A program made the position numbers and the translations under genes. Source: Cirrosporium novae-zelandiae (Eukaryota). From it: a DNA stretch of 64,000 nt. Positions 3,584 to 61,330 of this stretch are shown here, one piece after another. Position 1 is the stretch's first letter. Each line of letters begins with the position of its first letter. The stretch spans positions 372,001-436,000 of the forward strand of contig JAPETS010000014.1 in assembly GCA_026023565.1 (NCBI GenBank). The letters run 5' to 3'. The notes beneath the pieces were generated by a model. That model was given only the letters and a program-made list of their open reading frames with translations. It was not told the DNA's origin and did not search any database.

Positions 3584-6286
3584 TTATTTCGACGTGGGCT
3601 GTCCTTGTTTCACATTGGGGGGGTTGACTTCGGCCAGTGGAGCACCTGAATGTCGACGTTGATTTTTTTCTGGTGTGGTTGATTCTATACTCATTTTTTT
3701 CGATTCCACCGATGTTCTAGGTGGCAGCTCAAGTAACTTGGCACTTCCTGCACTAATTTTTCGTGCGTGCCCTCGTTTCCCTTTGCCATAATCAATGCTC
3801 GTTGCACGGTGGACCCATCCACCCTCCGGAGTAGGGCTTGGAGTTTCTGGAGAGTCAGGAGAATCACCTCCTGTTGATTCGAGTTGTGGAGCGGGAGGGC
3901 TTGAACCATCGCCAGATTCGACCATGTTCAATAGCCCTTCGACCGATTTAACTCGAGCCGTATGTTTGACAAGTGTAGGTTTTCGTTCGATTGATACGTG
4001 CCAACTGGTGCCGGCAGCATCAGGGTCGGTACGCGGTATCATATCATCTTCTGCTTCCGAATTCTCATGAGAAAGGAGATTGCTACTTGCTCGTTTGGTG
4101 TCCGTAGCATGTTCAGGAGCGTTCCACTGGTCCGGTCCTGGTGTCAGCCGTCTGAAGTAGTCGTCGTCAAGAACGTTGTCAGAGTCTTGTCCATCCGACA
4201 TACGCTTCAGACGTTGCAAGGAACCTGCACTTGACCGAAGGGCTTGAGCCGAGGAGAGAGAGCTTCGCTTCATTGGTCTACCAGATAGCCAAGATCCTTC
4301 CGAATCCACAGATGCAAGTGATTGCGACAGCAAAGCAGGATCTGGTGTTTCAACCGATCGATGCCTACTAGCACTTCCAGACATTGGATCCTGGAAAGGA
4401 TCCCTTGAGCCGAGCGGTTGGTCGATGCTCATATTGTCTGCTAGACTAGAGCTATTTCGTTCTATGCGGTAATCGGGATTCATCGGGATTGGGATCGGAA
4501 CTGCTTCGGGAGATTGCATCCTCGAATCAGGAGGAGACAGAGGAAGCTCTGGTAGATCTTCTCGGAATTTCGAAAGTGTTCGACGAGGGGCATTTGACAC
4601 GGTGCGGTAATTGACACCTGTCAAGTGAGCAGGAAGAGGTTGTCCTTTCACCGAATCTCTAGGCGTGGTATTCTGGAACTCTGGAGTAAACCTTTGGTCA
4701 CGAGTCGTGCGCTTGTTCTTTCGAGACGATCGCCTGAAGAACGAGGCCCATCGAGTAGGTTTGAAACTGTTTTCAGACCCCCTCTTGCTTCCGCTTCCAA
4801 CGCTATCGAGTTCCGAATGTTCTGGGATGTCGGGGGTATCATCACGTGCTGAATTAAAGATGTGGGGGATATTAGACATTTGAGGCTGTGTCGGTGGCGG
4901 GGTGGGTGGTGAAAAGGTTGACGGGATCGAAGGTACAGGTTGAACGGGCTCCATAGGCTGTTCCTCGATGATTGGTTCCGGCAATTCTGCTCTTGAAGGG
5001 CCAGTGGCCATTGAATTGTCGGTAAAAGGATCATCAGAAATTGACTGTCCTCTTTCCGAGTCTTTACGTGACGAGGTTGGCGACTCCATTCTCACATCTT
5101 CCCTCTCTCTCTGATTATAGAATGCCCGACCAGCTTTCGAAGGAGAAGGAGCATCGAGATCAGGGCCAGTCGAACGTTGAACCATCTCAGATCCACTAGC
5201 CAGTCCCGCTTCAGCTTCTTCACGACGCTGTTTGTCTGCTCTTCTCTGTAGTTTCTCGTGCAACCTTTCCTGATCTGACCGTCTCTTTCTCTCTCTTCGT
5301 CGTCTGTCCCGATCCATAATCTCACGTAAACTCTCGGTATCCATTTCCTCTGCAAGGTCATCTATTCGCTTGCTTTCTTTGATGGTGCTTTGCGTGTACA
5401 TGGGCCGTTTATCCCTCCTGACTGAACTCCTAGAGGGCTCTGCACTTCTTGGGGGAACATATCGAGGATTCTCCGTATACTTTATCGTCGGACACGGTGC
5501 CAAAATATCGAGAGTGCTGACCTTAAAACCAAGGCCTTCCGACAGGCCAGATGCAGAGGAATGCATCGACTCATCTGGCGGAGGCAGCGATATGTCGGAT
5601 GTGGGTTGATCCATCTCTGTTCGGAATTTCCTGCTTGCTCGTCGAAAGATCCTACTACCTGATCGTTTTGGCTGTGGGGTATATCGACATAGTGCTTTTA
5701 TTTCCTGCTCCCGGGCATAGTCCTCTGCCTTCCTCTTGCTCGATTTCCGACGCGGCAACATCTGTTCCGGAGATGATCGCTTGGCACGCAATGATGGTGG
5801 TCGTGGAAGAGCAGTGAAATTTTCGGGTCCAATGCTCGATTGCGAGGCAGCGGCGTTTTGATAGGAGGTTGAATTGTTTGCACGTCCATAGTACTGATAG
5901 GTTTGTCTTCGCACAGGAGCATTGTCAGCGAGTCTTGCAGAATTTGAAGGATATGGGACCGTTTGCGTCCCTGAACCCAGAATTCTTCCACTTTCGGATG
6001 GTGCGACTTCGGGTCCTTGGGATATCGTCCGAGCTTTGAATTTTCGATAATCTTGCCTTTCCTTTCGCAATTTCTTTGGCTCGCTATGCCGTAAAGTTGA
6101 GGTATTAATAGCGTGTTCTTGCCGGACCGGATTCCGGCTAGAGAGGGGAACCGTAGAGACCAGACGAGGCGCCTGAGGGCCGATGGATGATCCCGACATC
6201 TTTTCAAAAGACCGTTGCGCCTGTTTCTCATTAAAATTATCAGATTTAGTCTTTTTCTTCTTGCGACCGAATGGCCACGGTGCCAT
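3584..6286 (-). CDS. Conserved-looking fungal hypothetical protein, ~900 aa, Ser/Pro/Arg-rich with a charged coiled-coil
   Basis: Single long ORF with likely start MAPWPFGRKK at 6286. Short conserved-looking islands: RIDDLAEEMD..REIMDRDRRRRERKR, LSQSLASVDSEGSWLSG, HARKISAGSAKLL. No recognisable catalytic domain. Confidence 0.75.
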   Translation of the reverse strand: MAPWPFGRKKKKTKSDNFNEKQAQRSFEKMSGSSIGPQAPRLVSTVPLSSRNPVRQEHAINTSTLRHSEPKKLRKERQDYRKFKARTISQGPEVAPSESGRILGSGTQTVPYPSNSARLADNAPVRRQTYQYYGRANNSTSYQNAAASQSSIGPENFTALPRPPSLRAKRSSPEQMLPRRKSSKRKAEDYAREQEIKALCRYTPQPKRSGSRIFRRASRKFRTEMDQPTSDISLPPPDESMHSSASGLSEGLGFKVSTLDILAPCPTIKYTENPRYVPPRSAEPSRSSVRRDKRPMYTQSTIKESKRIDDLAEEMDTESLREIMDRDRRRRERKRRSDQERLHEKLQRRADKQRREEAEAGLASGSEMVQRSTGPDLDAPSPSKAGRAFYNQREREDVRMESPTSSRKDSERGQSISDDPFTDNSMATGPSRAELPEPIIEEQPMEPVQPVPSIPSTFSPPTPPPTQPQMSNIPHIFNSARDDTPDIPEHSELDSVGSGSKRGSENSFKPTRWASFFRRSSRKNKRTTRDQRFTPEFQNTTPRDSVKGQPLPAHLTGVNYRTVSNAPRRTLSKFREDLPELPLSPPDSRMQSPEAVPIPIPMNPDYRIERNSSSLADNMSIDQPLGSRDPFQDPMSGSASRHRSVETPDPALLSQSLASVDSEGSWLSGRPMKRSSLSSAQALRSSAGSLQRLKRMSDGQDSDNVLDDDYFRRLTPGPDQWNAPEHATDTKRASSNLLSHENSEAEDDMIPRTDPDAAGTSWHVSIERKPTLVKHTARVKSVEGLLNMVESGDGSSPPAPQLESTGGDSPDSPETPSPTPEGGWVHRATSIDYGKGKRGHARKISAGSAKLLELPPRTSVESKKMSIESTTPEKNQRRHSGAPLAEVNPPNVKQGQPTSK

Positions 6287-7836
6287 ATCTTCTCCGGGAA
6301 AGCTTCTGGCCAGCTTCACTCCTCCGCAGGCCAGCCGCTGTTGGCGGCGCCAGCACAGAAGGGTCGACACTGTGGCGGTTTACTACTGAATTGATAGTTG
6401 TTGATGCATGGAATTTGATACAGGAAATTCAACAGCGGCTATTAGGAATGTGAAGAGAAGATGTGAAGGAAAAGCGCGTTTGCGAATAATGGTGGTGGCG
6501 TGCTCAGTAAAAGGTCTTGAACTTTGGATCCCGACCAAAGTGGAAGCAACGGCCCGGCGTGCTCGTTTAATTTCTGGCGGCTTGCTTTTGGCTTTGGTAA
6601 GGTAATATTACCGGGGTATGGTACTGGGTCACAGCCTGGGTGGCTCAGTGGGCTCACTTTGGTTTTGAAACCTCTTTGGAGCTGCAAAAGATTGTGGTGC
6701 TGTTGGAAGTGTTTGACAGCAACGTGTCACGGACGCGATTGAAGACTTGGAATGGCCAGCGCGTGTGTGTATGTGGGTGGGTACGAAGATAAAAAGGAAG
6801 ACCCAGTTGAGATGGGATAAAAAGCACAAAGGCTAAGAATTGAAGGGGGTTTTTTTTCTCTTTGGTTTACAAAATCCGAGTCTTTGTTGCGACTGGACTG
6901 ACAAGCAAGTATGGTAAATTGCATTTATTACAAGAAAACTGGGATGCAAGGGCACAGGTCCATGTATTGGTAGTAAGGAGTTGAATTGGTCGTGATGGTA
7001 GTAGTGGTGGTGGCGTGGCGGGCATGGAGGACACGGGAGGTTTTGAAAAACCAGTTAAGAGTATGGCCAAATTCGATGGTGATGGGGGGATGGGGGGGGG
7101 GTGGATAATGGCTTAGTTTGGTAATTGAAATTTCTAGCTTGGATAAAGTGGGGTATAGATATTATGCTGTTCACTATTCGTCAACCTATGCCTGTATTTA
7201 TTTTTATTCATTTTGTTTTTTTTTTGTTTTGAAGTTGGGGGGGGGATTTTATTTCATCGAGGGGTTAAGAAGAGAGAGGCACGAGGAAGAATAAAGATGG
7301 AATGAATCATCAAGGGTCCTCCCTCGGGTTAGAAAATATATGAGGGACTAACTATAAGGAGGTAGAGGGCGGAAAAGGAAGGAGGGGGAGGGAGTCAAAG
7401 TACTTAGTCAGGGATGAATAACTGAGAATGTCTTTGATGTTCTGAAATACCTTGAATGCCTGAATGCCTGAATTCCTGAATAGCTGAATGCCTGAATACC
7501 GAGGTAGATATGTTCCCTCGTCGCTATCTCTTGCTGAGACTGGTAAATGATAAATAAATAAATAAAATTAAAAAAATAAAAACAAAATAAAATTAAAAAA
7601 AAACAAAGCTGGGAATTTCCAAGAATGGATTTCTACAGGTCAAGGAAAGCGGGTCATGTTGTTGGTAGCAGTGGTATTGTGGTAAAGTGCTTGCAGAGGT
7701 GCTACTCAAGTAATGGAAAAGCACAGTATCCCAGTTGACCATTGCTGAAAGCCTCTGAACAGCCTCCAAGAAGCCATTGGAGAGGGTCATAAGAGCTAAG
7801 GAGGAAGCCAATTACTGTCGAAAGTAAATGCCTAGG

Positions 7837-48720: not shown

Positions 48721-49640
48721 ATGAATCAAATCACAATACCTTTCGAAGCAACTTGTGAGCTCAGCCACTAGCTACGGCTGCCAAATCGGGAGGGACCACT
48801 GTCCTTGAAAGAACAGATATCGATGCTCCCTATACCCTTCCGGGGCAACCGTTGATACCACTTCAGTCATTTGAGATGATACAGCATCTACAGCAAGAGT
48901 TGCTGACTCTTAAGCTCAATAAGATGGCACCGCATCTCTGGCTTGTCGCAACGCAACGCAGCGACCTCACCACTTCATCATCAGATAGTCCGATGACGCA
49001 AAATCACTCTCACGGAAAATTCTAAGCTATACTTCGTCTGAATTGACGACCAAGTTTTCATCAAGCCGTTCACTGCTTTCTTGCTTTCGTATGTCATCTT
49101 GGTATATCCTTTTTGAGGAGATCACCAAGCTTTCGTTGCGACCTGCCGACCGAGAACTTCTGTTTAGGAGCGCTGTGGGGTATGTTAGGAGCTACTATCA
49201 CCTGATCAAGCACGATTCCGACTTCAAGATCGCTGTCGAAGACCACTTGGTTCCATCAGTGGCTTCGCTCGAGGACTTCTGCACGTTCATCAAAGGCTTT
49301 GCACGGCTCCCTGATTTATAAGTGTCGGCTCGCTATTACTTTGGAGACCTGTGGACTGATCTAGCTCAATTTCTGGGTGAAAGTTCTCCTGCACTAGTTC
49401 AGGTTTGAGGAAGTGGCCGGTCAATCCGATGCATACTTCTCTCACTTTTTCCAGCCATTTTCTTTCGCCTTTTTCACATTCAACATGATCCTGAGTGCCA
49501 TACAGGTGGACCTCGGTATAGAACAACTATAAGCTGTCGCGAACTCCTGGCAGGGATTCGGTGACACATCCTAGTGGTTTGCAGTGATCATAATTATCTG
49601 TGCGGTATTTTCTGAAAGTATTGTACTGGGGGTGTTAGTA
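48721..49640 (+). pseudogene. Disrupted DUF6601-like gene
   Basis: Across frames: LPGQPLI..ELLTLKLNKMAPHLWLVATQ / PLHHQIVR*RKITLTEN.KLYFV*IDDQVFIKP / RSAVGYVRSYYHLIKHDSDFKIA..LVP / L*VSARYYFGDL / AYFSHFFQPFLF..ILSAIQV..WFAV. Several in-frame stops and frameshifts. Family recognised from memory of these motifs. Confidence 0.7.
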
Positions 49641-50630: not shown

Positions 50631-53600
50631 ATGCTTGATGATATTCTCCTCGTTATCCACCATGCTTTACCATTCATCCTCCTAAGTATTGTTCTCCTTG
50701 CTCTTCGAACTGATATCCCGTCACTTTACAACTGGATAATCGTCGTCCTTGGTGCACTAGCAACATGGCTCTCCACTCCGACAAACACCCGTTGGGGAAT
50801 GACGATTCGCTTTGGGCTTCTATTTCTTGCTATTATTCTTTCTCCCTTGCAAAGATTTTTTTTCGGGTCGAAAGGCAGCAGTCATAACCAGAACGAGAAA
50901 TTCATTAATATTCTACACGATCCGCCGGATGCTGAATGCGAGTAAGAATAATGCTTCATTAGATAGACACGGCTACTGCAACATGACTGCTCCTGTCCTC
51001 ATTGACTATGAATGCTAATGAGATCTGCAGTATAGTCGCAGTTCATGGCTTGGGTTCCTCCGTTGAGACCACATGGAAGCATCCTGACTCAGGTAAGGTC
51101 TGGTTGAGAGACCTCCTCCATCAAGACCTCCCCAAGGCACGCATCATGACATTCCGGCACAATTCAAAGTGGAAGTCCGACGCACAAGTCAAGGACATAA
51201 TAGATTATGGAAAGCAACTTCTTAGTGCGGTGGAAGATGAGAGAGTCAAGGATGATGTACGAAACCCACCCCAAGACCATAAAATACTGCGATTCTGTAC
51301 CGAGTACTCTAGAAATGTGTTCATGTGCTGACTAGATTAATTACACAGGTGAAAGACAGGCCGATCGTGCTGATCGGACACAGTTTCGGCGGTTTGTTGA
51401 TCGAACAGGTATGGCACAAATTCCATTCTGACGATAGTCGTTTCTGGTCAGTCTAACTTCTGTCTTTGCAGGCACTCGTCATTGCGAAACGCCCTAGTCG
51501 TGACCGAGATATCGAGAAACAACACTCGAACCTCTTCAAGAGCCTCGCCGGCACGGTTTTCTTGGGCACTCCACATGCCGGGTCTGGATATACAGCGCTT
51601 GGGAAGCTTTATTGCCATCTCACATATTGGCGTGGGTCGAGCACCGTGCTACTAAGCGCAATCGATCCCGACTCGGACGCCACGCGGAACCTGGAGGATG
51701 AATTCTTGTCGGGCTACCCTGAATTACCGATGGCGGACTTCTATGAGGCATATCCTAATACGATTCTTGGTCAACGGGTGCTCGTAAGTAGTTCTATATA
51801 GATACGAATCACGCTCTCATTCTCCCAACCAGTGTCTGATCAAGAATTAGGTCGTCAAAAAGAAATCAGCAACGAGGGCGGGCTATATGTCCGAGTCCCT
51901 TGATACGGACCATTTTGGATTGAATAAGTATCGAGACCAGGATGATGCCAGTTATATCCGCGTCCGGAACGAGATGAACAGGATGCTGAAACTGAAAATG
52001 AGTATGTATTTCATCCACGTCTAATTATCTTTCTCGAAAAACTGACCAGCTATGTCATTTAGACGAAAACCAGAGAGAGACAGACGAAGAAGGTGTGTAG
52101 CTAGGGCCTCTATTCTCTAGATAGTTAATTGGTTGGTCCGTCTTGCTAATTCTGAAGAGGGGAAATATCTGGATGTACTTCGCCGGCTTGATTGGCTCGA
52201 CTTCGAGTCTACTAAGGAGGAGTACCGGGATAAGTTTATCGATGGGACTTGTGGGTGGATTGCGAAAGAGAAGCAGTTTGAGGAGTGGGATCTGAAGGAG
52301 AAAAATAAGGAAGAGAAAGGTGAGCGAAAGAAGGGAAGTGGGAAGAAGGAGAAAAAAGTCCTTTGGATTTTCGGAAAGCCTGGATCTGGAAAGACTTTCA
52401 TTGCACACGTGAGCAGGGTCATACTCGGAAACTATTGAGATCGAAGCACTAACATCTACCAGTACATATGCGAATATCTGAAGGACAAAGGTTTCTTGAT
52501 GTATTTCTTTTTCGACTCAAAGGGTGCTGAATCCAAGGAGCGTCAATCATTGGCAAAATTCTATCATACCATCCTCCGTCAGCTCCTTCAACTCCTACGA
52601 CATTCCAATCGCAAGCTAAAGACTGAGTGTTTTGAGATAGTACGCCAGAAGATCTTAACGGATGATCTGAACCAAGAAACCCTTCAGGAACTCTTACAGC
52701 AAGTCTTAACTAGGGTCGGCCCAACTTTCCTCGTTATCGATGCGCTTGACGAATGTAGGAAAGAAAACGACCCAGGTAAACTGCAAACCTGGTTAGCCAA
52801 TGAAAAGAAGCATCCAGGCCTCCGAACTCTCATAACAAGTCGCCCGGAACAGAGAATCACCGACGTAGCCGAGAATAGTCTTTTCATCCATCTCGAGCTC
52901 AATTCACTGGTAGCAAAGTCCAACAATGATATCAGGCTGTTTATTCAAGCTAGGTTGGTAAGCTCAAAAGATTTGCAAGGTGATGGACCGGAATGGAAGG
53001 AAGTGAAACAAAAGATTGAGCATAGGTTGATGGAAAGAGCTGATGTAAGTTTTAATCGGGCATTAACCTTTCGTCTACTCTCGTGCTGACCGGGTCAGGG
53101 AATGATTCTATACACAAGTCTAATGCTCCAAATTCTCGAAGACAAAGCCGGCGATTTCGAGGATTTAGTCGCAGAGTTAGAGCGGTTACCTCCGAACATC
53201 GGCAAGCTCTATGAGGATAGGCTGGGCCAGATAAAGAATGTAGATTTTGCCAAAAGAATTTTTCAATGGCTTGTTACTTGCAGGCGTCCACTGACTGTTG
53301 ATGCACTCAGGGGAGCCAACACCATCAACAAGACGATCCAACGTGAGAAGAGCTTCGAGTTACAGGGCAAAGATCTTCCACTGGGAATGGACCAAGATCG
53401 TTTTCGTCGATTCCTCCTCAAAGACTGCTTGCCATTGATAGAGATCTTGAAAGATGACACCGTGCGTCTTGTCCACACTACCGTCTCTCAATATCTCTTA
53501 GGCGAGAACATGGGAGAGGAAGACGCTTCATCCACTACAGGTCCTCCCCCCCGCTTTCACGTTCATCTCAAGCAGAGCCATGAGCAAATTGCACTTACCT

Positions 53601-56600
53601 GCTTGACGTATCTGCGCGTAGTCGTTGGCGATATTGACGCCTCCCACAACCGTAGTCTCTCGGGCAATCCCAATTTACGAGAATATGCGGTGCTTGAGTG
53701 GTCTGAACACAGCCAGAGATCCGAGGAAGAGATCATGGCGCAGCAGAAGAAAAGGAAAGTTCTCGTCTCGTTCTGCAAGGAATGGGCGTTTACAGCTTGG
53801 CTGGACGATCGTGCGCGCATGGATAATCGTTTCTGCGTGCACTTTTCGCTTGAAAGAACGAGTATTACTAATATTGGTACGGGCTGTCCCGCGAGGCGTT
53901 ACCCCACACCTCTTCATATTGCGGCCTACTTCAACCTATATCTCCTCAGCCGTAAGTTCTTGGACCAAGTAAACATCAGCGATGCAACGGAGAGCACTCC
54001 ACTGCATATTGCTGCTGGACTCGACCACGCAATTATTGTTCACGACCTGTTGAAAGCCGGGGCGCGGACCGACATGCAGGATTCAAATGGTTCCTTTGCT
54101 CTCCACAGGGCCGTACGGAGAGGTCATATTGGGGCCCTCAAGGAGCTAATAATTGGTAACGCTGATGTCAACGCGAAAGACAAGTACAAGTTCACTCCCT
54201 TACATGTTGCTTGTCAGCTTGGGTGGACAGAATGCGTAAAGATGCTACTCGATCATGGTGCCAAAGTGCCCACGGAGAGCGATGCGGTCGAGACGCCTTT
54301 GGGATTCGCCATTGCCAATGGACACTTTGGTGTGGTTCGTGTTCTTTTGAACGGAGACAAGTCTTTGATTTCATTTTGTGGCAAGCCATTGGTCCAAGCT
54401 GCTCGCAAAGGGAAATCTGACATGGTGAAGTTTCTCCTCGAAAACGGAGCGGATATCTCCCACACGGATTTTATGGGTCAAACAGCTTTACACAAAGCCT
54501 GCATTTCCGGGCATATGGACTTGGTTGAATATTTGCTCAACTACCCGAAGGTCACCGTCGATCCCGTTGACCAGTCGGAGCGAACGCCTCTGTATTTTGC
54601 GGCCGAGAGAGGATATCTCGACATCGTCAACTTGCTCATCAAACACGATGCGAATGTAAATTACCTAGATAGGCGTTGGGAAACTGCGATGTTTAAACCT
54701 GCTGGTAATGGGCACACGGCAGTGGTGAGTCGATTGCTAGATGTCGGTACTAACCCAACGAAACTGGATATGTGGGACCGGACTCCCCTGCGATTTGCCG
54801 CAATGAGAGGTCGAAAGGATATTGTCCGCATGCTACTTGAAAGAACTAAAATCGACCAAAACAAGCCTGACTGGATGGGGCGGCCTGTTCTTCATGCTGG
54901 GGCAGCATATCTACGCCAAGGCCAAGAGGAAGTCATTGATATACTCTTTGAACATGGTGCGCAGCCAGCCACCCAAGGATATGAAGGAGGCAGCGCCCTT
55001 CATGCTGCGATATCCCGTGAATCGGACCAACCACCTGTAACAAAAGATCTTGTGGAAAAGCTAATCCACTACGGGGTTCCTATAGATACTGTCGACGAAC
55101 ATGGGAAAACACCCCTTGCCTTAGCTGTCCAAAGTGAGAACCTCGAAGTCGTTGAGCATCTCCTTAAGTCTGGCGCTAGTCCAGGCAATACTGCTCTTCA
55201 CTGTGCCATCGAGACGGGTAATATTGTCGTTGTCAAGCTGCTCCTGTGCTACCAGTCCAATCTAGATTTGACAGAGCGAAACTTGTCGGGAGAGACTGCT
55301 CTTCATATAGCCGCGAAGGAAGGTGACGAAGCGATTCTTAAGGAACTTCTGAATGCTAAGATTGCTACAAGGCTTCTCGACATGGAAGGAATGACTGCCC
55401 TTATGAGAGCAGAGAAGCTAGAGAAAGAAGGCCTTGTGAGCTTGCTTCAAAATGCCGATCCTGCACCCGCTGGTGATTATGAGACTCGTGCAGCAAGTGG
55501 TTTGTGGGGTCGACGTGCGATTCACTGGGCGGCAGAAGACGGAAAAGACGTCAAGATATACATGACAGATGATGAAACCTTGAATTCTAAGGATGATGTT
55601 GGGAGAACTGCACTTCATTTGGCAACGCTCTTGGGGTGTTTAATGGTTGTCCAGCAGCTCCTCTCTGCCAAAGCAGACGTTGATCTTACAGAGGAGCTGG
55701 GCCAGACACCATTGCATTATGCAGCAGAAAATGGAAATATGGAAATCATGGAAGCCCTCATATCTGCAGAAGCGGACATTAACGCCCAAGATAAGTGGTT
55801 TCGATCCCCTCTACATCTCGCCGTGCAAAAAGGACATTCAGAAACTGCAAGCCGACTCATCTCTGCCGATGCTCAAATTCAAAGCGACTATCAGCAACAA
55901 ACGGTTTTCCACATCGCAGCTATGCACGGACATGAAAATATAATGTCTTCTCTACTAGAGAGCAATCCAATTCCCTTGAATGTCTACCAACAAGACCACG
56001 CCGGCAAAACAGCTTTGCATTACGCGTCCGAACACGGGAACACGGCTATAGTGACAGCCCTTCTTCCCTATTTTGAAGAATCTTCAATGATAGATATCAA
56101 GGACGATTTGAAACAGACGGCCCTTCATTTAGCATCCAAAAATGGCTATATTGACATCGTACGGCGTCTCATAAAGTCGGGGTCCATTGTATACCGAACT
56201 AGCGAAGACCGAGATATGGCACTCCATTTCGCCGCCGAGTCTGACCACCTTGAAACAGTTGCGGAGCTTCTCGATGCGCTTCCCGACCATGTTGAACGTT
56301 GTCTCAACAAGTGGGACGAGAAGCATCCGCAATGGCCAAGCGAAGAAGAAGGCTACGACCAAGCCTTCTTTGAAGCCCTCATTAACGTTGGTGCATTGGT
56401 ACAAAATCCAGAGACTAGAAAATGGCAAGTCAACCCCGAAGAATGGCTCCCCACCGCCAGACAAACCCTAAAATCCAAAATAATCTCAGACCTCCAAGGA
56501 TGGGACAAAAGCGAACACAGCATAGCGACAACCGCCATAAACCGAGCCGTAAAATCCGGCCACGTCTCCATCGTCAAATTCCTACTAAAGACAATCCCCG

Positions 56601-57136
56601 GAACCCCCCCAGAAACACCCGACTACTTCGGCTTCGATCCCCTCCAGCGCGCCGCCCATCTCGGCCTCACCGAAATCGCATCCCACCTCCTCGCCGCGGG
56701 CGCAACCATCAACGCCATCTCCGACAGCCAGCAAACGTGCCTCCACCTCGCTGCCACAAACGGCCACGCCGAAACCATCGATCTCCTCCTAGAAAACGGC
56801 GCCAACGCCGATCTAGCCCGCTACCGCGACGGGCGCACCGCGCTGCACCTGGCCGCAGAGAAAGGCCACACGGGTGCCGTGAAAGCTTTAATCCGAATGG
56901 CGTTCCTCAATGCGAGAGACGATCTCGATAAGACGCCGCTTCACCTGGCATGTGAGAATGGGGAGGAGGGAGTGGTGGATTTGCTGTTGGATGTGGATGC
57001 GGATGTTTTGGTTGGGGATGTGGAGCGCAAGACGCCGTTGGCGGTGGCGAGTGAGCGTGGGTTTGGGAGGATTCTGGAGAAGTTGGAGGTGGTGGCTACG
57101 AGGCAGAAGTTGCGGATGGCTGAGGTGGGAAAGTGA
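50631..57136 (+). CDS. Fungal NLR-like protein, ~1,986 aa: hydrophobic N-terminus + SesB-like alpha/beta hydrolase + NACHT + ~30 ankyrin repeats; exons 50631-50941, 51031-51256, 51349-51408, 51472-51783, 51851-52001, 52063-52092, 52158-52408, 52463-53044, 53099-57136
   Basis: Hydrolase motifs DIVAVHGLG, VWLRDLL, GHSFGG, FLGTPHAGS, DTDHFGLNKY. NACHT motifs GTCGWI, Walker A WIFGKPGSGKT, YFFF, Walker B FLVIDALDEC, LITSRPE, VRLVHTTV. Repeated TPLH/TALH ankyrin units. All introns are GT..AG and phases are consistent (5961 nt total). Confidence 0.88.
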
Positions 57137-59426
57137 ATGAGATATGTTTTTCCTTCTGACCAAAAGAGGTGACTAGGGTTCCTGAGTTAACCTAATATTG
57201 CATAATATTTTGGGCATGGTGCAGTGTGTAATTCAACAGAGAAGTACACTTATACCAGTGAGACTAATCACTAGTACTCTTGGGAATTGAACCCAACCTG
57301 GTATTTATGGCATCCGATAAACAGATCTCACCCCAAACGCTAACCTAGGAACTTCTCAAAAAAACGGGTTTTCCTCTTATCTTCTTCTTTCTTCCTCACT
57401 GTTAACGCCACAGCTCTACCCAAGTTATAATATCCTATAAATCCTAGCACTAGTCTACCCCACATCCTTTTATTTCGATTAGTTACCTAGGTACAGCAAG
57501 AGTGTTGGCTTCTTCTTCTCCTTCTTCCCTCACTCCCCTCTTCTCCACCCTTTTCTTTTCTCTCATCAACTTAAACACGATAATAAACCCGATAGAATAG
57601 AAAACGTATAAAATATAATCCAAAGCGATTGCGCACGCGACGCATACAGGTAGCCGTACGCAGCGTAGATGGGATAATAATAGATAAAAGGAGCAGAAGT
57701 GCTAACATCTACAATTTTTTTCTACTGTTAACGTTGTGGTAAGGTTATAGGTTATATAGGATATATATCCTAACACCCAACACTAGATATCCCACGTCCC
57801 ACATCCCTTTTCTCATTTCTTCTTAATTGATTAAGTGTAAGAGCGTTTATTCCCCTTTGCTCCCCCCCCCCCCCCCCCATTCCTTATTAACTTAACCCCG
57901 ATAGAATAAAATAAATAGATAGAATAGAAAACTCATAATCCAAGACCCATCATATGTAGCGTATATAGGATATGATAGGATATGATAGGATGCGTAGAAT
58001 AGATAACAGGAGCAAGGAACAGAAAAAAACAAAAAAAAGAAAGAAAAAAAAGAAAAAAAAAGCTTTAAGAAATCCTTTAAGAAAGTGCAAAGGAATACAA
58101 ACAAGTCTTAGACTAAGGTAGGTAAGTTTAGCACAAAACAGCAGCACAGTAGTAATTCTAGATTATATATAAACGGGAAAGGGGCAAGAAAGACATGAAT
58201 CATATTTTTCAAGTTTTAATATATTACCCAAGATTACCATAGATATTCAGAAAAAATCAAGAAATTATAAAACCGTATCATTTTCCCTATTTTTTTATAT
58301 TTTATATTTCATATTTTTTTTTTATCAAGAGACTTCTATAGGTCCTAGAAGTAAGGTAAAGGTAAGGTAAATGTTTATAGAAAGATAGGATAGGAGTGAG
58401 GGGAGTTGAGGAAGGGATTTTATATTTCACAACTTACCAATTAACCCACCTAGGTAACCGAACTAGCATGGTCTTAGTCCTAGATTACTTGTACTTTATG
58501 TAGTCTAAACGGTAAAACAAAAATAAGATAAGGACAAAAACATTAATCTTTTTTTTTTTTTTAGTAATTATATCTAATTAATTAGATAATTATGAAATTA
58601 ACTAAAACTTATATTCCACTTTAATTATCTTAACTATTATTATTAATTAACCTATATTCTATATTTCTCTTACAGTCTTCCCACGGAACACGTCCCCCCC
58701 AAAGAGAAATATATATATATATATATATGTATAGATACGTATAAGTTCTTACAAGGTACAATACAAATTAACAAATTAGCGTGTTAATAGATATATATTA
58801 AATGAACCTTTTTTAAGGTGGTGATTACAGACAACGAACTCAGCCCCCCCCCCCTCGAGGGATCTATATATATCTATATTTATATTTATACCTGTATAAA
58901 GTTGGAGATGGTGGGGGTGAGGGGGGAGGGGTTATGTGATGTGATGTGACATAATATCCTGATAGCTCGGTTATCTGTGACATTTTGATTATTTTTGTTT
59001 TAAAGAAATATACATGTATAATTAAAAGAGAGTGTTACAAGATAAAATTTTTGCAAGAGTTTTTGATGTTGTTTTTTGGGGACTCTACAGAGATGGGTTG
59101 TGTGGCTCACTAACTTTCTGTAGCTGGCTAACTACAGAGTCCCTCCATTATAGATGTTATTTACGACCTGTTTTATTAATTATTCAAGGACGTTGAAAAA
59201 TCACAACGATAAACAAACCATCCCAGTTATATTGAAATTACTACTAGTGGATCAGGTACTTTAGTAGTAGCACCGAACCTTTCTTTTGTAAACCACATCG
59301 CACCAGCATAATTGCCCTAAACTTACTTACTTTTCTTGATTCTGAAAATAATCAAGTACTCAATTGAACTCCTTTGACCTGATTGAATCTCCAGAATCAT
59401 AAACATAAGCATCAAGAACCCTACCC

Positions 59427-61330
59427 CTACTCCGGCTCGTCGTGATATTCTATCTCTTTTGCAGGTCTGCAGCAAGGCCCATTTTGGGGGCATTCATCTC
59501 CGCAGTCAAGGAGGCACGCATCAGGAATGCTACGTTCGCTTGCTGCGCGATTGACACTCCCATTTGGGTTTGTAAACCGTTTGTGGCCTGTTGATGATCC
59601 ATTTCCACTCGAATCCGAATGATCATGAGTGCTATCAAGACAGAACTCCGGTTGGATTGTAGAAGAATGTATACCATATTCATGAAGGCAACGTCGTATG
59701 GCGTGGGCAAGTTCCATATACCTTGCAGCACCTGCATGCTTAAAGTCGAAGCTAACTTGAACATGCAAAGACGCTACTAGTTTACTGTCGCTAAGTTGCC
59801 AAACATGAAGATGATGGCAGCCTACTACGCCGTCAAGTTCTGAGATGTCGTCAGAGATGTCACTGACACTGATATGTTCTGGTGTTGCTTGAAGTAAGAT
59901 CCGGGAGGCTGCAAGGCAAAGCGGTATAGCCGAAGCCAAAATAACGCAAGTAATGATCAAGGAAATTAGAGGATCAGCATAGAATCTCCATGAATATGAA
60001 GTAAGCCAGATGAATAGTGCGGAACCGATTACACCAATATTACCTAGAGCATCTCCCATAACATGAAGAAATACTCCACGCATGTTAAGATCGTGCGAAT
60101 GTCCATGTCCGGCTCCAGGTTTCTTGGCTTTTGTATGATGGTGTCCTATGTGCCAAGAATCATGTCGTTTGTGGCCATTTCCATCCTGGCCGTGGTTTGG
60201 TTCACCTAGAAATTGGGTTGTATCATCCTCCGTGCCATTGAGAGGTGGTAAGATATCGTCCGGGGTACCATTATCATCAATAGCTTCTTCGGATTCAGAT
60301 TCATTTCGTGATGGAATATCTTCCATTTTGCTGGCTGCAATAATTTCATTCCGGAAGCTTGCTGGATGCACAGATATACTGTCAACTCCGGCGAAGCCAC
60401 GTTGCCTGGAGGTACTTCCATGACGTCGATGGGCTATTTGGCTTCGATGGCTACCCCGTCTAGTTTTGGTTCCAGAATGCGATGTCCTTCTGGTCACAGT
60501 ACTATCGTTTTCATCACTTGAAGTAAAGCCTGCAGAGCGGGCCCTGTTATGAGCATCCAATGTCGTTGTTAAATCATTGATCATTGGGCCAGTAGATGGC
60601 CATCCAGCCACAGTACTTTGAGGAAGGATATCGGTGACGTTCTCGCCCTCATCCAACACAACAGCCGCCTCTTGATCAGGGATATCATGGTATCGTCCCT
60701 CCTCAGCAATGTAAATTTCATCTTCCTGATGAGAATGTTCTCCTTCGGATGGGCCATGACTATGATCATGAAAAAGCAAAAGACCAACAAGATTTGAAGC
60801 AAGACCGAAGCAACCGACAACAAGAACAATCATGGGATTCTTAATTTCCTGTGGTTCGACAAAGCGTTGTATGGCATCTAAGAAGATGGAGAGGCATAAT
60901 GCGACTAGGAAAACACCGTTGAACAGAGCTCCAAGAGTCTCGGCGCGTTGCCACTGTACATGGTCAATGAGGTCACCCTAGAAAAGGACTGGCTTTGCCT
61001 TACTCCATATGTATATCTTGCGGAAACGGTTCCTTTCTGGGCGACTTTTACAGCCCAAAGGCCGACAAGCAAGGATATGACATCGTTTAACTAATTGTTA
61101 TGTTCAGCCTTGCATTATTGAGAGAAATTGATTTTCTTGAATCGTACCATATGAAAGGAATCGGCAACGAGGGCAAGAGAGTGAACAGCATATCCTAGAA
61201 ATCAAATGAATTAGCATTAGAAAAGATCCATCGATAAACAGGGGTATTTACCACAGGAGATCTCAATTAGGAAAAAGACGGAGTCGATAGCGAGCAATGT
61301 AATCATGCGTGTAGACTTGGACATCCCCAT
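59427..61330 (-). CDS. ZRC1: CDF-family vacuolar zinc transporter (Zrc1/Cot1-like); 3 introns
   Basis: MGMSKSTRM..IDSVFFLIE, HSLALVADSFHMLND, YTYGWQRAETLGALFN, His-rich loop, DLNMRGVFLHVMGDALGNIGV, HHLHVWQL, GIHSSTIQPE. Confidence 0.92.

Follow-up and report, generated by a model that had tools for sequence, protein, structure and literature searches.

A putatively membrane-anchored SesB-like NACHT-ankyrin receptor in Cirrosporium novae-zelandiae

The usual view of NOD-like receptors (NLRs) is that they are soluble and work in the cytosol, and for the SesB-like lipase effectors of fungi we know of no established target. Here we describe an NLR gene carried by positions 372,001 to 436,000 of contig JAPETS010000014.1 (assembly GCA_026023565.1) from Cirrosporium novae-zelandiae, an ascomycete of the Xylobotryomycetes; this whole stretch of 64,000 nucleotides (nt) is called the window, and coordinates are counted from its first letter. 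The predicted protein (P0001) has in common with the sesB-like/NACHT/ankyrin NLRs described in surveys of fungi (PMC4986451; Wojciechowski et al., 2022, PMC9815663) its tripartite order, a GxSxG motif, Walker A and B motifs and C-terminal ankyrin repeats, but it differs from them in an added, conserved, three-helix hydrophobic domain of about 80 residues that precedes the hydrolase.

The nearest precedents for such an arrangement have been described elsewhere. The NLRs of anthozoans (Nematostella, Acropora) were reported to carry three to four N-terminal transmembrane (TM) domains and were presented by their authors as the first putative membrane-bound NLRs (Yuen et al., PMC3879445), and bacterial NACHT proteins with TM domains have been described as well (bioRxiv 10.1101/2022.07.19.500537). 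The sesB-like domain was related by Dyrka et al. (2014; PMC4986451) to human SERAC1, for which a TM segment at residues 32-54 and a lipase domain at residues 396-540 are given (PMC6687635). In the fungal NLR surveys PMC4986451 and PMC9815663 and in a survey of the Sordariales (PMC12258605), the word 'transmembrane' is absent from the main texts, supplements aside, and the article text of a 2026 Podospora paper contains it once, as a legend abbreviation for NLR-like proteins of other lineages (PMC13449251). Full-text literature searches on SesB-like/NACHT/transmembrane and on fungal NLRs likewise returned no description of this architecture among their top-ranked matches, supplements aside.

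The gene and its hydrophobic N-terminal domain

Rebuilt from the DNA, the whole coding sequence (50631..57136, forward strand) consists of nine exons totalling 5,961 nt, has its sole stop codon at the end and encodes 1,986 residues. Its eight introns are all of the GT..AG type, measure 54-92 nt and contain CTAAC/CTGAC-like branch sites. The translation is letter-identical to a publicly annotated protein ('MAG: hypothetical protein M1834_001621 [Cirrosporium novae-zelandiae]'), and the coordinates, eight introns and length proposed by an earlier reading of the DNA letters alone (hereafter the sequence-only reading) proved exact. The junction LHDPPDAEC/DIVAVHGLG named there was also correct in the DNA: exon 1 ends in ...LHDPPDAEC followed by GA, and exon 2 adds the T that completes an Asp codon before IVAVHGLG. 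Intron 1 is therefore of phase 2 and splits the Asp codon of DIVAVHGLG (exon end GA, then GTAAGA). A splice from 52001 straight to 52158 would leave out the 30-nt exon 6, which lies within 52002-52157, and still keep the frame; the spacing in homologues favours inclusion of this exon. We regard the gene and its architecture, as modelled, as virtually certain.

The N-terminus of this protein stands apart from the rest in its hydrophobicity. A Kyte-Doolittle scan of all 1,986 residues (19-residue windows, threshold 1.6) exceeded the threshold at residues 1-33 (peak 2.57), 29-47 and 55-79, and outside the N-terminus only in windows starting at 185-186, where a buried strand precedes the nucleophile, or at 1478-1480. 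AlphaFold2 (AF2) placed helices at residues 2-24 (H1), 31-48 (H2), and 54-70 and 73-77 (together H3), both in a construct of residues 1-376 and in exon 1 folded alone, the latter with a predicted local distance difference test score (pLDDT) of 75.9 and a predicted TM-score (pTM) of 0.51. In a crude sum of insertion energies on a Hessa-type scale, H1 scored -0.33 (21-mer), H2 1.63 and H3 1.09 (17-mers each), and the best 17-mer elsewhere (residues 86-1986) scored 2.89. By both scales, the three N-terminal segments are the most hydrophobic of the protein.

A search with residues 1-420 among proteins of similar length gave 30 proteins (29 besides P0001). Nine of the 29 other NLRs carry the N-terminal domain, and they come from Cytospora mali, Sclerotinia trifoliorum, Aspergillus brasiliensis, Lasiodiplodia mahajangana, Ilyonectria robusta, Trichoderma asperellum, T. 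aethiopicum, Fusarium avenaceum and Gaeumannomyces avenae; 16 show no trace of it. Two more distant SesB-like NLRs, P0013 from a Trichoglossum hirsutum metagenome-assembled genome and P0020 from Cylindrodendrum hubeiense, have shorter hydrophobic N-termini with remnants of the pattern (YYLPF...AFSP and RNAF..., respectively), and the family appears from these sequences to include reduced versions with one or two helices. The domain aligns with 25 other sequences (26 in total), in which P72 is invariant and N34, L63 and S71 are kept in at least 90%, and the family consensus reads ..Y.PF.VL....LS.R....S.RNF..V..GA...W...P..S.WG..IS..L..LA..MSPL.

A wider view came from a profile of the first 85 residues, searched against 1.84 billion cluster representatives. 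It matched only 24 proteins at E<=1e-3, 19 of them at E<=1e-10, and superseded two word-index searches, one using only exon 1 and the other the alignment of the N-terminal domain, which had found one and five proteins, respectively, and were crowded with chance word matches. Four of the 24 are full-length NLRs already found and 20 are new, among which 17 are short exon-1 open reading frames (ORFs) composed of a Met, three helices, a variable linker, the hydrolase lead motif (NP.PI..LHDP.DA.V), a Glu and a stop. They all stop at the same intron position, and an ending in Glu and a stop is what results from reading through a phase-2 intron inside the Asp codon; exon 1 of the window, when read through intron 1, likewise gives AEC, Glu and a stop. 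The remaining three new matches are P0046, which runs on into the hydrolase, P0049, which looks spurious, and P0050, which is weak. Rosellinia necatrix and Annulohypoxylon stygium are the named sources among the fragment matches. A 321-residue protein of A. stygium (P0055, on a 117-kb contig) has the N-terminal domain and the hydrolase and then ends without a NACHT; it may be a SesB-like lipase that is membrane-anchored and stands alone, or else its annotation may be truncated. Across independent assemblies, the pattern shared by these predicted exon-1 ORFs puts the hydrophobic region and the hydrolase together in a single exon and a single frame.

An artefact of annotation would offer a simpler explanation of the hydrophobic stretch, in which the true start is Met57 (50799), the only other in-frame ATG of exon 1, or lies in exon 2, and the upstream hydrophobic frame is merely an untranslated leader. 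Two public homologue models, P0007 (Trichoderma pleuroticola) and P0011 (Gaeumannomyces hyphopodioides), are indeed without the domain, wholly so in P0011. However, the exon 1 frame is open from 50577, just after a TAG, and 50631 is its first ATG; residues 1-56, which such a start would leave untranslated, align at the level of amino acids with 25 sequences whose assemblies and gene callers are independent. P0007, moreover, has as its first residue the very Met of the conserved 'MSP' motif in helix 3, so that its gene model seems to have been truncated at the N-terminus and is hardly a natural form. We therefore hold an artefact to be very improbable. As judged from the alignments, the N-terminal segment of about 80 residues is not a hydrophobic leader that arose by chance but a domain conserved in sequence, and it defines a small predicted clade scattered over at least five classes of Pezizomycotina. 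The sequence-only reading had called this N-terminus atypical, which holds insofar as 16 of the 29 relatives show no trace of it and no Pfam family describes it; it is not a one-off, however, but a conserved domain of a clade.

The domain also keeps company with one particular part of the protein. Three homologues (P0002-P0004) are 39-43% identical to P0001 in the N-terminal domain, 56-59% in the hydrolase, 37-40% in the NACHT and 47-49% over more than 1,000 residues of the ankyrin region. In three others (P0005, P0006 and P0009) the first two values are similar (36-37% and 51-57%), whereas the NACHT is only 24-28% identical and the best ankyrin alignments are short or reach only 23-26%. The N-terminal domain and hydrolase thus travel as a pair on two different NACHT-ankyrin backbones, and swapping of effector modules between fungal NOD backbones has been described (Dyrka et al., 2014, PMC4986451; Wojciechowski et al., 2022, PMC9815663). 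Such co-inheritance, as read from the identities, ties the hydrophobic domain functionally to the putative enzyme rather than to the sensor.

The hydrolase, NACHT and ankyrin regions

The order hydrophobic N-terminus, SesB-like hydrolase, NACHT and ankyrin repeats, as first proposed from the letters alone, was confirmed by Pfam, AF2 and motifs (Table 1). For the hydrolase, Pfam reported DUF676 (putative serine esterase) at residues 105-240, with 27.0 bits against a cutoff of 20.3. In the AF2 model of residues 1-376, built from a 37-row alignment, strands and helices follow one another as in an alpha/beta hydrolase, at a mean pLDDT of 93.2 and a pTM of 0.86, so that structure prediction bears out the hydrolase fold and predicts the N-terminal helices. 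Foldseek against the PDB listed lipases first (BlEst2 at E 4e-9, monoglyceride lipases and Pseudomonas lipases). The top match in VIA-align was the Legionella phospholipase PlaB (Z 23.1, root-mean-square deviation 2.6 over 221 residues, model residues 102-352), with BlEst2 (Z 21) and Candida antarctica lipase B (Z 18-19) further down.

In an alignment of 21 related NLR hydrolase domains, the columns of Ser191 (HS.GG), GTPH and His324 (dH) are conserved, and both the intact GHSFGG elbow and the candidate His of DTDH that the sequence-only reading had picked out fall in such columns. Glu291, at the end of strand 286-291, is kept in at least 90% of these sequences and Asp323 in 70-90%. By sequence and model, the domain is an intact serine hydrolase that resembles lipases and belongs to the DUF676/SesB-like kind, with putative activity. 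The motifs DIVxVHGL, GHSxGG, FLGTPHxGS and DH..xxKF we take to be sesB-like ones, which those of P0001 presumably match. PGAP1 (PF07819) was not among the Pfam matches of P0001 at E<=0.01 and is annotated only in the more distant relatives P0022-P0024 and P0026; GPIID_WHD is weak in P0001 (19.2 bits against a cutoff of 27). Four public homologue models (P0004, P0007, P0008 and P0010) are, in the alignment, without exactly the micro-exon stretch that bears the GHSFGG elbow, most likely through annotation that skipped the micro-exon rather than through loss of activity in the enzymes.

Beyond the hydrolase lies a predicted linker helix in which 17 of 38 residues are charged. The NACHT module after it was matched strongly by NPHP3_N (E 5.8e-30, 105.1 bits against a cutoff of 24.8) and NACHT (E 2e-12, 47.7 bits against a cutoff of 26.7). 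Pfam ankyrin families cover residues 930-1960 approximately (Ank_2, E 4.2e-164; Ank, E 7.4e-146), and a repeat profile built from 17 clear repeats found 27 stretches at residues 908-1962, some of them weak; the figure of about 30 ankyrins given earlier was fair if slightly high. Ankyrin matching is poor at residues 1232-1309 and 1404-1475 and weak at 1702-1825, all approximate. Tandem Repeats Finder detected no tandem repeats in the DNA of this region, which indicates that the ankyrin repeats have diverged. Taken together, the locus is predicted to encode an intact fungal NLR with hydrolase, NACHT with Walker A and B motifs, and C-terminal ankyrin repeats.

Table 1. Predicted features of the receptor gene and its protein (window coordinates)
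Feature	Residues	Coordinates	Strand	Basis or remark
Exon 1		50631-50941	+	reading frames and GT..AG introns
Exon 2		51031-51256	+	
Exon 3		51349-51408	+	60-nt micro-exon
Exon 4		51472-51783	+	
Exon 5		51851-52001	+	
Exon 6		52063-52092	+	30-nt micro-exon
Exon 7		52158-52408	+	
Exon 8		52463-53044	+	
Exon 9		53099-57136	+	
Conserved N-terminal hydrophobic domain	1-85	50631..50885	+	hydrophobicity scan, AF2 helices, alignments, profile search, charge pattern
H1	2-24	50634-50702	+	followed by K/R-rich loop
H2	31-48	50721-50774	+	followed by neutral loop
H3	54-77	50790-50861	+	holds invariant S71-P72
Tether, then hydrolase lead motif FINILHDPPDAEC	86-90 (tether)	50886..50941	+	same exon and frame as hydrophobic domain
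SesB-like/DUF676 alpha/beta hydrolase	92-335	50904..51946	+	exons 1-5; Pfam, AF2, structural alignment, conservation
VHGLG	108		+	motif scan
Nucleophile elbow GHSFGG	189-194	51376-51393	+	Ser191 at 51382-51384, on 60-nt micro-exon 3
GTPH	231		+	motif scan
DTDH	321-324	51902-51913	+	His324 at 51911-51913
Candidate acid residue	Glu291 or Asp323	51745-51747 (Glu291)	+	
Long charged helix, hydrolase-NACHT linker	336-373	51947..52186	+	AF2 helix; includes micro-exon 6
NACHT NTPase module	393-574 (NPHP3_N), 431-601 (NACHT)	52244..52924	+	Pfam
Walker A GKPGSGKT	436	52373-52396	+	
Walker B LVIDALDE	537	52730-52753	+	
Ankyrin-repeat region, about 27 repeats	908-1962	53897..57061	+	Pfam and self-built repeat profile

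Proposed membrane insertion and action

The composition of the N-terminal helices suggests where the domain resides. Their cores are uncharged, with five charged residues (D3, D4, R54, R60 and R75) at or near the ends of the AF2 helices; helices of the hydrolase, for comparison, hold one to five charged residues per 9-15 residues. A three-helix unit without a polar outer face would argue for a lipid environment. H1, an AF2 helix of 23 residues with Kyte-Doolittle values up to 2.57, is a convincing candidate for a segment long enough to span a bilayer, and H2 and H3 on their own are marginal as membrane spans. From the two to three membrane helices originally suggested, then, three hydrophobic predicted helices have emerged, with H1 convincing but H2 and H3 short. 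H1 was also considered as a signal peptide and rejected by inference, its N-terminal flank being acidic rather than basic and its hydrophobic core in P0001 extending over 21 residues. On balance we think it likely, with good confidence, that the domain of about 80 residues is embedded in a membrane.

Searches for a known counterpart of the domain gave little. In Pfam, nothing covers residues 1-100, and the only match within residues 1-103, DUF5455, scored 17.2 bits against a cutoff of 25. A fold search with the N-terminal domain alone reached a best Z of 8.3, with generic three-helix bundles that lie within the noise for helical models, and a look-up of residues 1-90 in the ESM Atlas returned no usable match.

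Charges flanking the helices are distributed in a manner that suggests an orientation. Across 27 aligned family members, the N-terminal tail is acidic and the loop between H2 and H3 nearly uncharged, and Lys and Arg are enriched in the loop after H1 (R26, position 29 and R33) and after H3. Under the positive-inside rule of membrane topology, this pattern fits an N-terminus outside, loop 1 inside, loop 2 outside and a C-terminus inside. Such a topology would leave the hydrolase, NACHT and ankyrin repeats in the cytosol, as an ATP-dependent NLR requires. Between H3 and the first hydrolase strand there are about 15 residues in P0001 and up to about 60 in other members.

A model of action can be built on these features. 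H1, with its acidic N-terminal and Arg/Lys-rich C-terminal flank, would insert as an uncleaved, N-out signal anchor, and H2 and H3, with their small-residue faces and invariant Ser-Pro, would form a transmembrane pair or a re-entrant hairpin that returns the chain to the cytosolic side. The tether of about 15 residues would keep the hydrolase at the bilayer surface, with the resting receptor on the cytosolic face of the membrane. In keeping with established behaviour of NLRs, sensing of a ligand by the ankyrin repeats would release NACHT-driven oligomerisation, which could cluster the tethered hydrolases for an attack on membrane lipid in cis. The attack would either damage the membrane, and so bring about regulated cell death, or produce a lipid signal. 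The full package, a membrane-anchored SesB-like NLR with a ligand-triggered attack on lipid in cis, is one whose insertion, topology, substrate, activation and role we infer, and we consider it somewhat probable, with less confidence in its later steps than in the embedding in a membrane.

Several observations weigh against this model. H2 and H3 are short (17-18 residues) with positive crude insertion energies (1.63 and 1.09), and may not span a membrane alone. We do not count here a crude Hessa-type scan, which is too coarse to settle H2 and H3: with windows of 17 residues and the threshold set at 1.0, it picked up no segment in P0001 and at least one in 17 of the 28 family sequences scanned. 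Both hydrophobicity scans are simple, and the Hessa-type sum is crude. The acid of the catalytic triad has two candidates, Glu291 or Asp323, as seen in the alignment. The ankyrin region is without the repeat-shuffling signature that was linked to recognition in some fungal NLRs in the account of Dyrka et al. Finally, the pLDDT of the N-terminal helices is about 90 in the joint AF2 model (pTM 0.86) and about 80 alone (pTM 0.51), a gain that could mean that AF2 packs the helices onto the hydrolase. This greater confidence in the presence of the hydrolase keeps alive two other explanations, in which the helices are sequestered or act as a lid.

In the first of these, the N-terminal domain is a latent membrane-attack element: its helices would be sequestered on the hydrolase and the long linker helix, freed by oligomerisation of the NACHT and inserted as a pore or lesion, much as HeLo/HELL, MLKL or plant CC domains do with their N-terminal helix, and the hydrolase would be an accessory. 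The compact joint AF2 model accords with this, the conserved polar or special residues (R26, S31, N34, W46 and S71-P72) suggest more than a passive anchor, and membrane-targeting N-terminal helices are described as an established mode of HeLo-type fungal effectors (PMC10197012, PMC5485727). Three uniformly hydrophobic helices with uncharged cores that begin at residue 2, however, would be expected to be captured co-translationally by the targeting machinery. Furthermore, neither exon 1 nor the whole protein gave a HeLo, HeLo-like or MLKL match in Pfam at E<=0.01, and HeLo-type helices are single and amphipathic. We consider a latent element unlikely.

The second explanation is a monotopic or lipid-interface module, in which a hairpin with a Ser-Pro knot dips into one leaflet or into the monolayer of a lipid droplet, or in which the helices serve the hydrolase as a hydrophobic lid or substrate funnel. 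The brevity of H2 and H3 would suit such a module, as would the invariant Ser-Pro in the middle of the third hydrophobic stretch. The N-terminal domain always occurs with this hydrolase and never with another effector, the lead motif being found in all matches long enough to judge, and BlEst2, a close structural match, is a lipase solved with and without its propeptide, which we take as a lead only. These points have to be set against H1, which at 21-23 residues and with its strong hydrophobicity (Kyte-Doolittle to 2.57, crude sum -0.33) has enough to span a membrane, and against the charge pattern, which fits a three-pass topology. In addition, the tether varies from about 15 to about 60 residues among homologues, which is hard to square with a precisely docked lid. 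A module of this kind seems to us rather unlikely.

An extension of the membrane-anchored model, which we find doubtful and would give only a small chance, is that the N-terminal domains of the protomers of a NACHT ring, each with three helices, join in the membrane as a channel or lipid-scrambling lesion that the phospholipase-like domain widens or feeds on. Lining or gating of the assembly would then fall to the invariant Ser-Pro and to the Arg, Asn and Trp conserved at the helix ends. If true, fungi would have a 'resistosome' that consists of a single chain and resides in the membrane constitutively.

Surroundings and comparison with known systems

The gene lies among neighbours that look, by sequence, like ordinary genes. 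Upstream is a DUF6601-like ORF (48989-49318, forward strand, Pfam E 1.1e-13), whose coding region extends across two frames that overlap (48759-49025 and 48989-49321, forward strand) and may reflect an intron or a frameshift in this neighbour. Downstream is a cation-efflux (CDF) transporter (59430-60977, reverse strand), and between the NLR and transporter genes the GC content dips to 0.355 at 58001-60000, against 0.42-0.51 elsewhere. Nuf2, adaptin, a flavin monooxygenase, a GH31 glycosidase, a tyrosinase and a metallophosphoesterase lie farther away. No second NLR, HET or HeLo gene was present among the 14 long ORFs scanned in the window, and a 931-residue open frame (3587-6379, reverse strand) had no Pfam match at E<=0.001.

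A lipase permanently fused to a membrane-embedding domain would, if this reading is true, provide a first direct hint of the site of action of SesB-like effectors, namely the membrane in cis, and would give fungi a counterpart to the putative membrane-bound NLRs of anthozoans. The N-terminal domain itself is a new, unannotated family that is invisible to Pfam and could be added to the catalogues of NLR surveys. The clade, as a likely case of a membrane-resident NLR in fungi, offers a concrete and testable lead on where SesB-like effectors act.

Comparison with described systems shows partial likenesses on several sides. HeLo and HeLo-like effectors, which lie on a fungal NLR or act downstream of one, resemble P0001 in that their N-terminus has an element prone to cross membranes, as described in PMC10197012. 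They feature one latent amphipathic helix in a helical bundle, however, whereas P0001 matches none of their Pfam families and has three constitutively hydrophobic helices followed by an enzyme. The best structural match to the predicted hydrolase, Legionella pneumophila PlaB (PDB 6zti/6zth), is bacterial, shares 17% sequence identity and has neither membrane helices nor a NOD, and a common fold does not imply a common substrate. SERAC1, compared by its published description, is likewise membrane-anchored, with a serine-lipase domain related to the sesB-like one, and acts on membrane phospholipid. It has a single TM segment about 340 residues from the lipase domain, without NACHT or ankyrin repeats, and is described as a metabolic enzyme at contacts between the endoplasmic reticulum and mitochondria, not a receptor.

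The anthozoan TM-NLRs, also compared by description, come closest in plan, since in them too a NACHT receptor is preceded by a multi-helix N-terminal membrane region. They belong to another kingdom, however, carry other repeats, and pass from the membrane region to the NACHT without an intervening hydrolase. The anthozoan and putative fungal membrane NLRs are probably independent inventions. In summary, the locus of C. novae-zelandiae represents a small Pezizomycotina clade of probably membrane-anchored SesB-like NLRs, for which the anthozoan TM-NLRs and SERAC1 are partial precedents.

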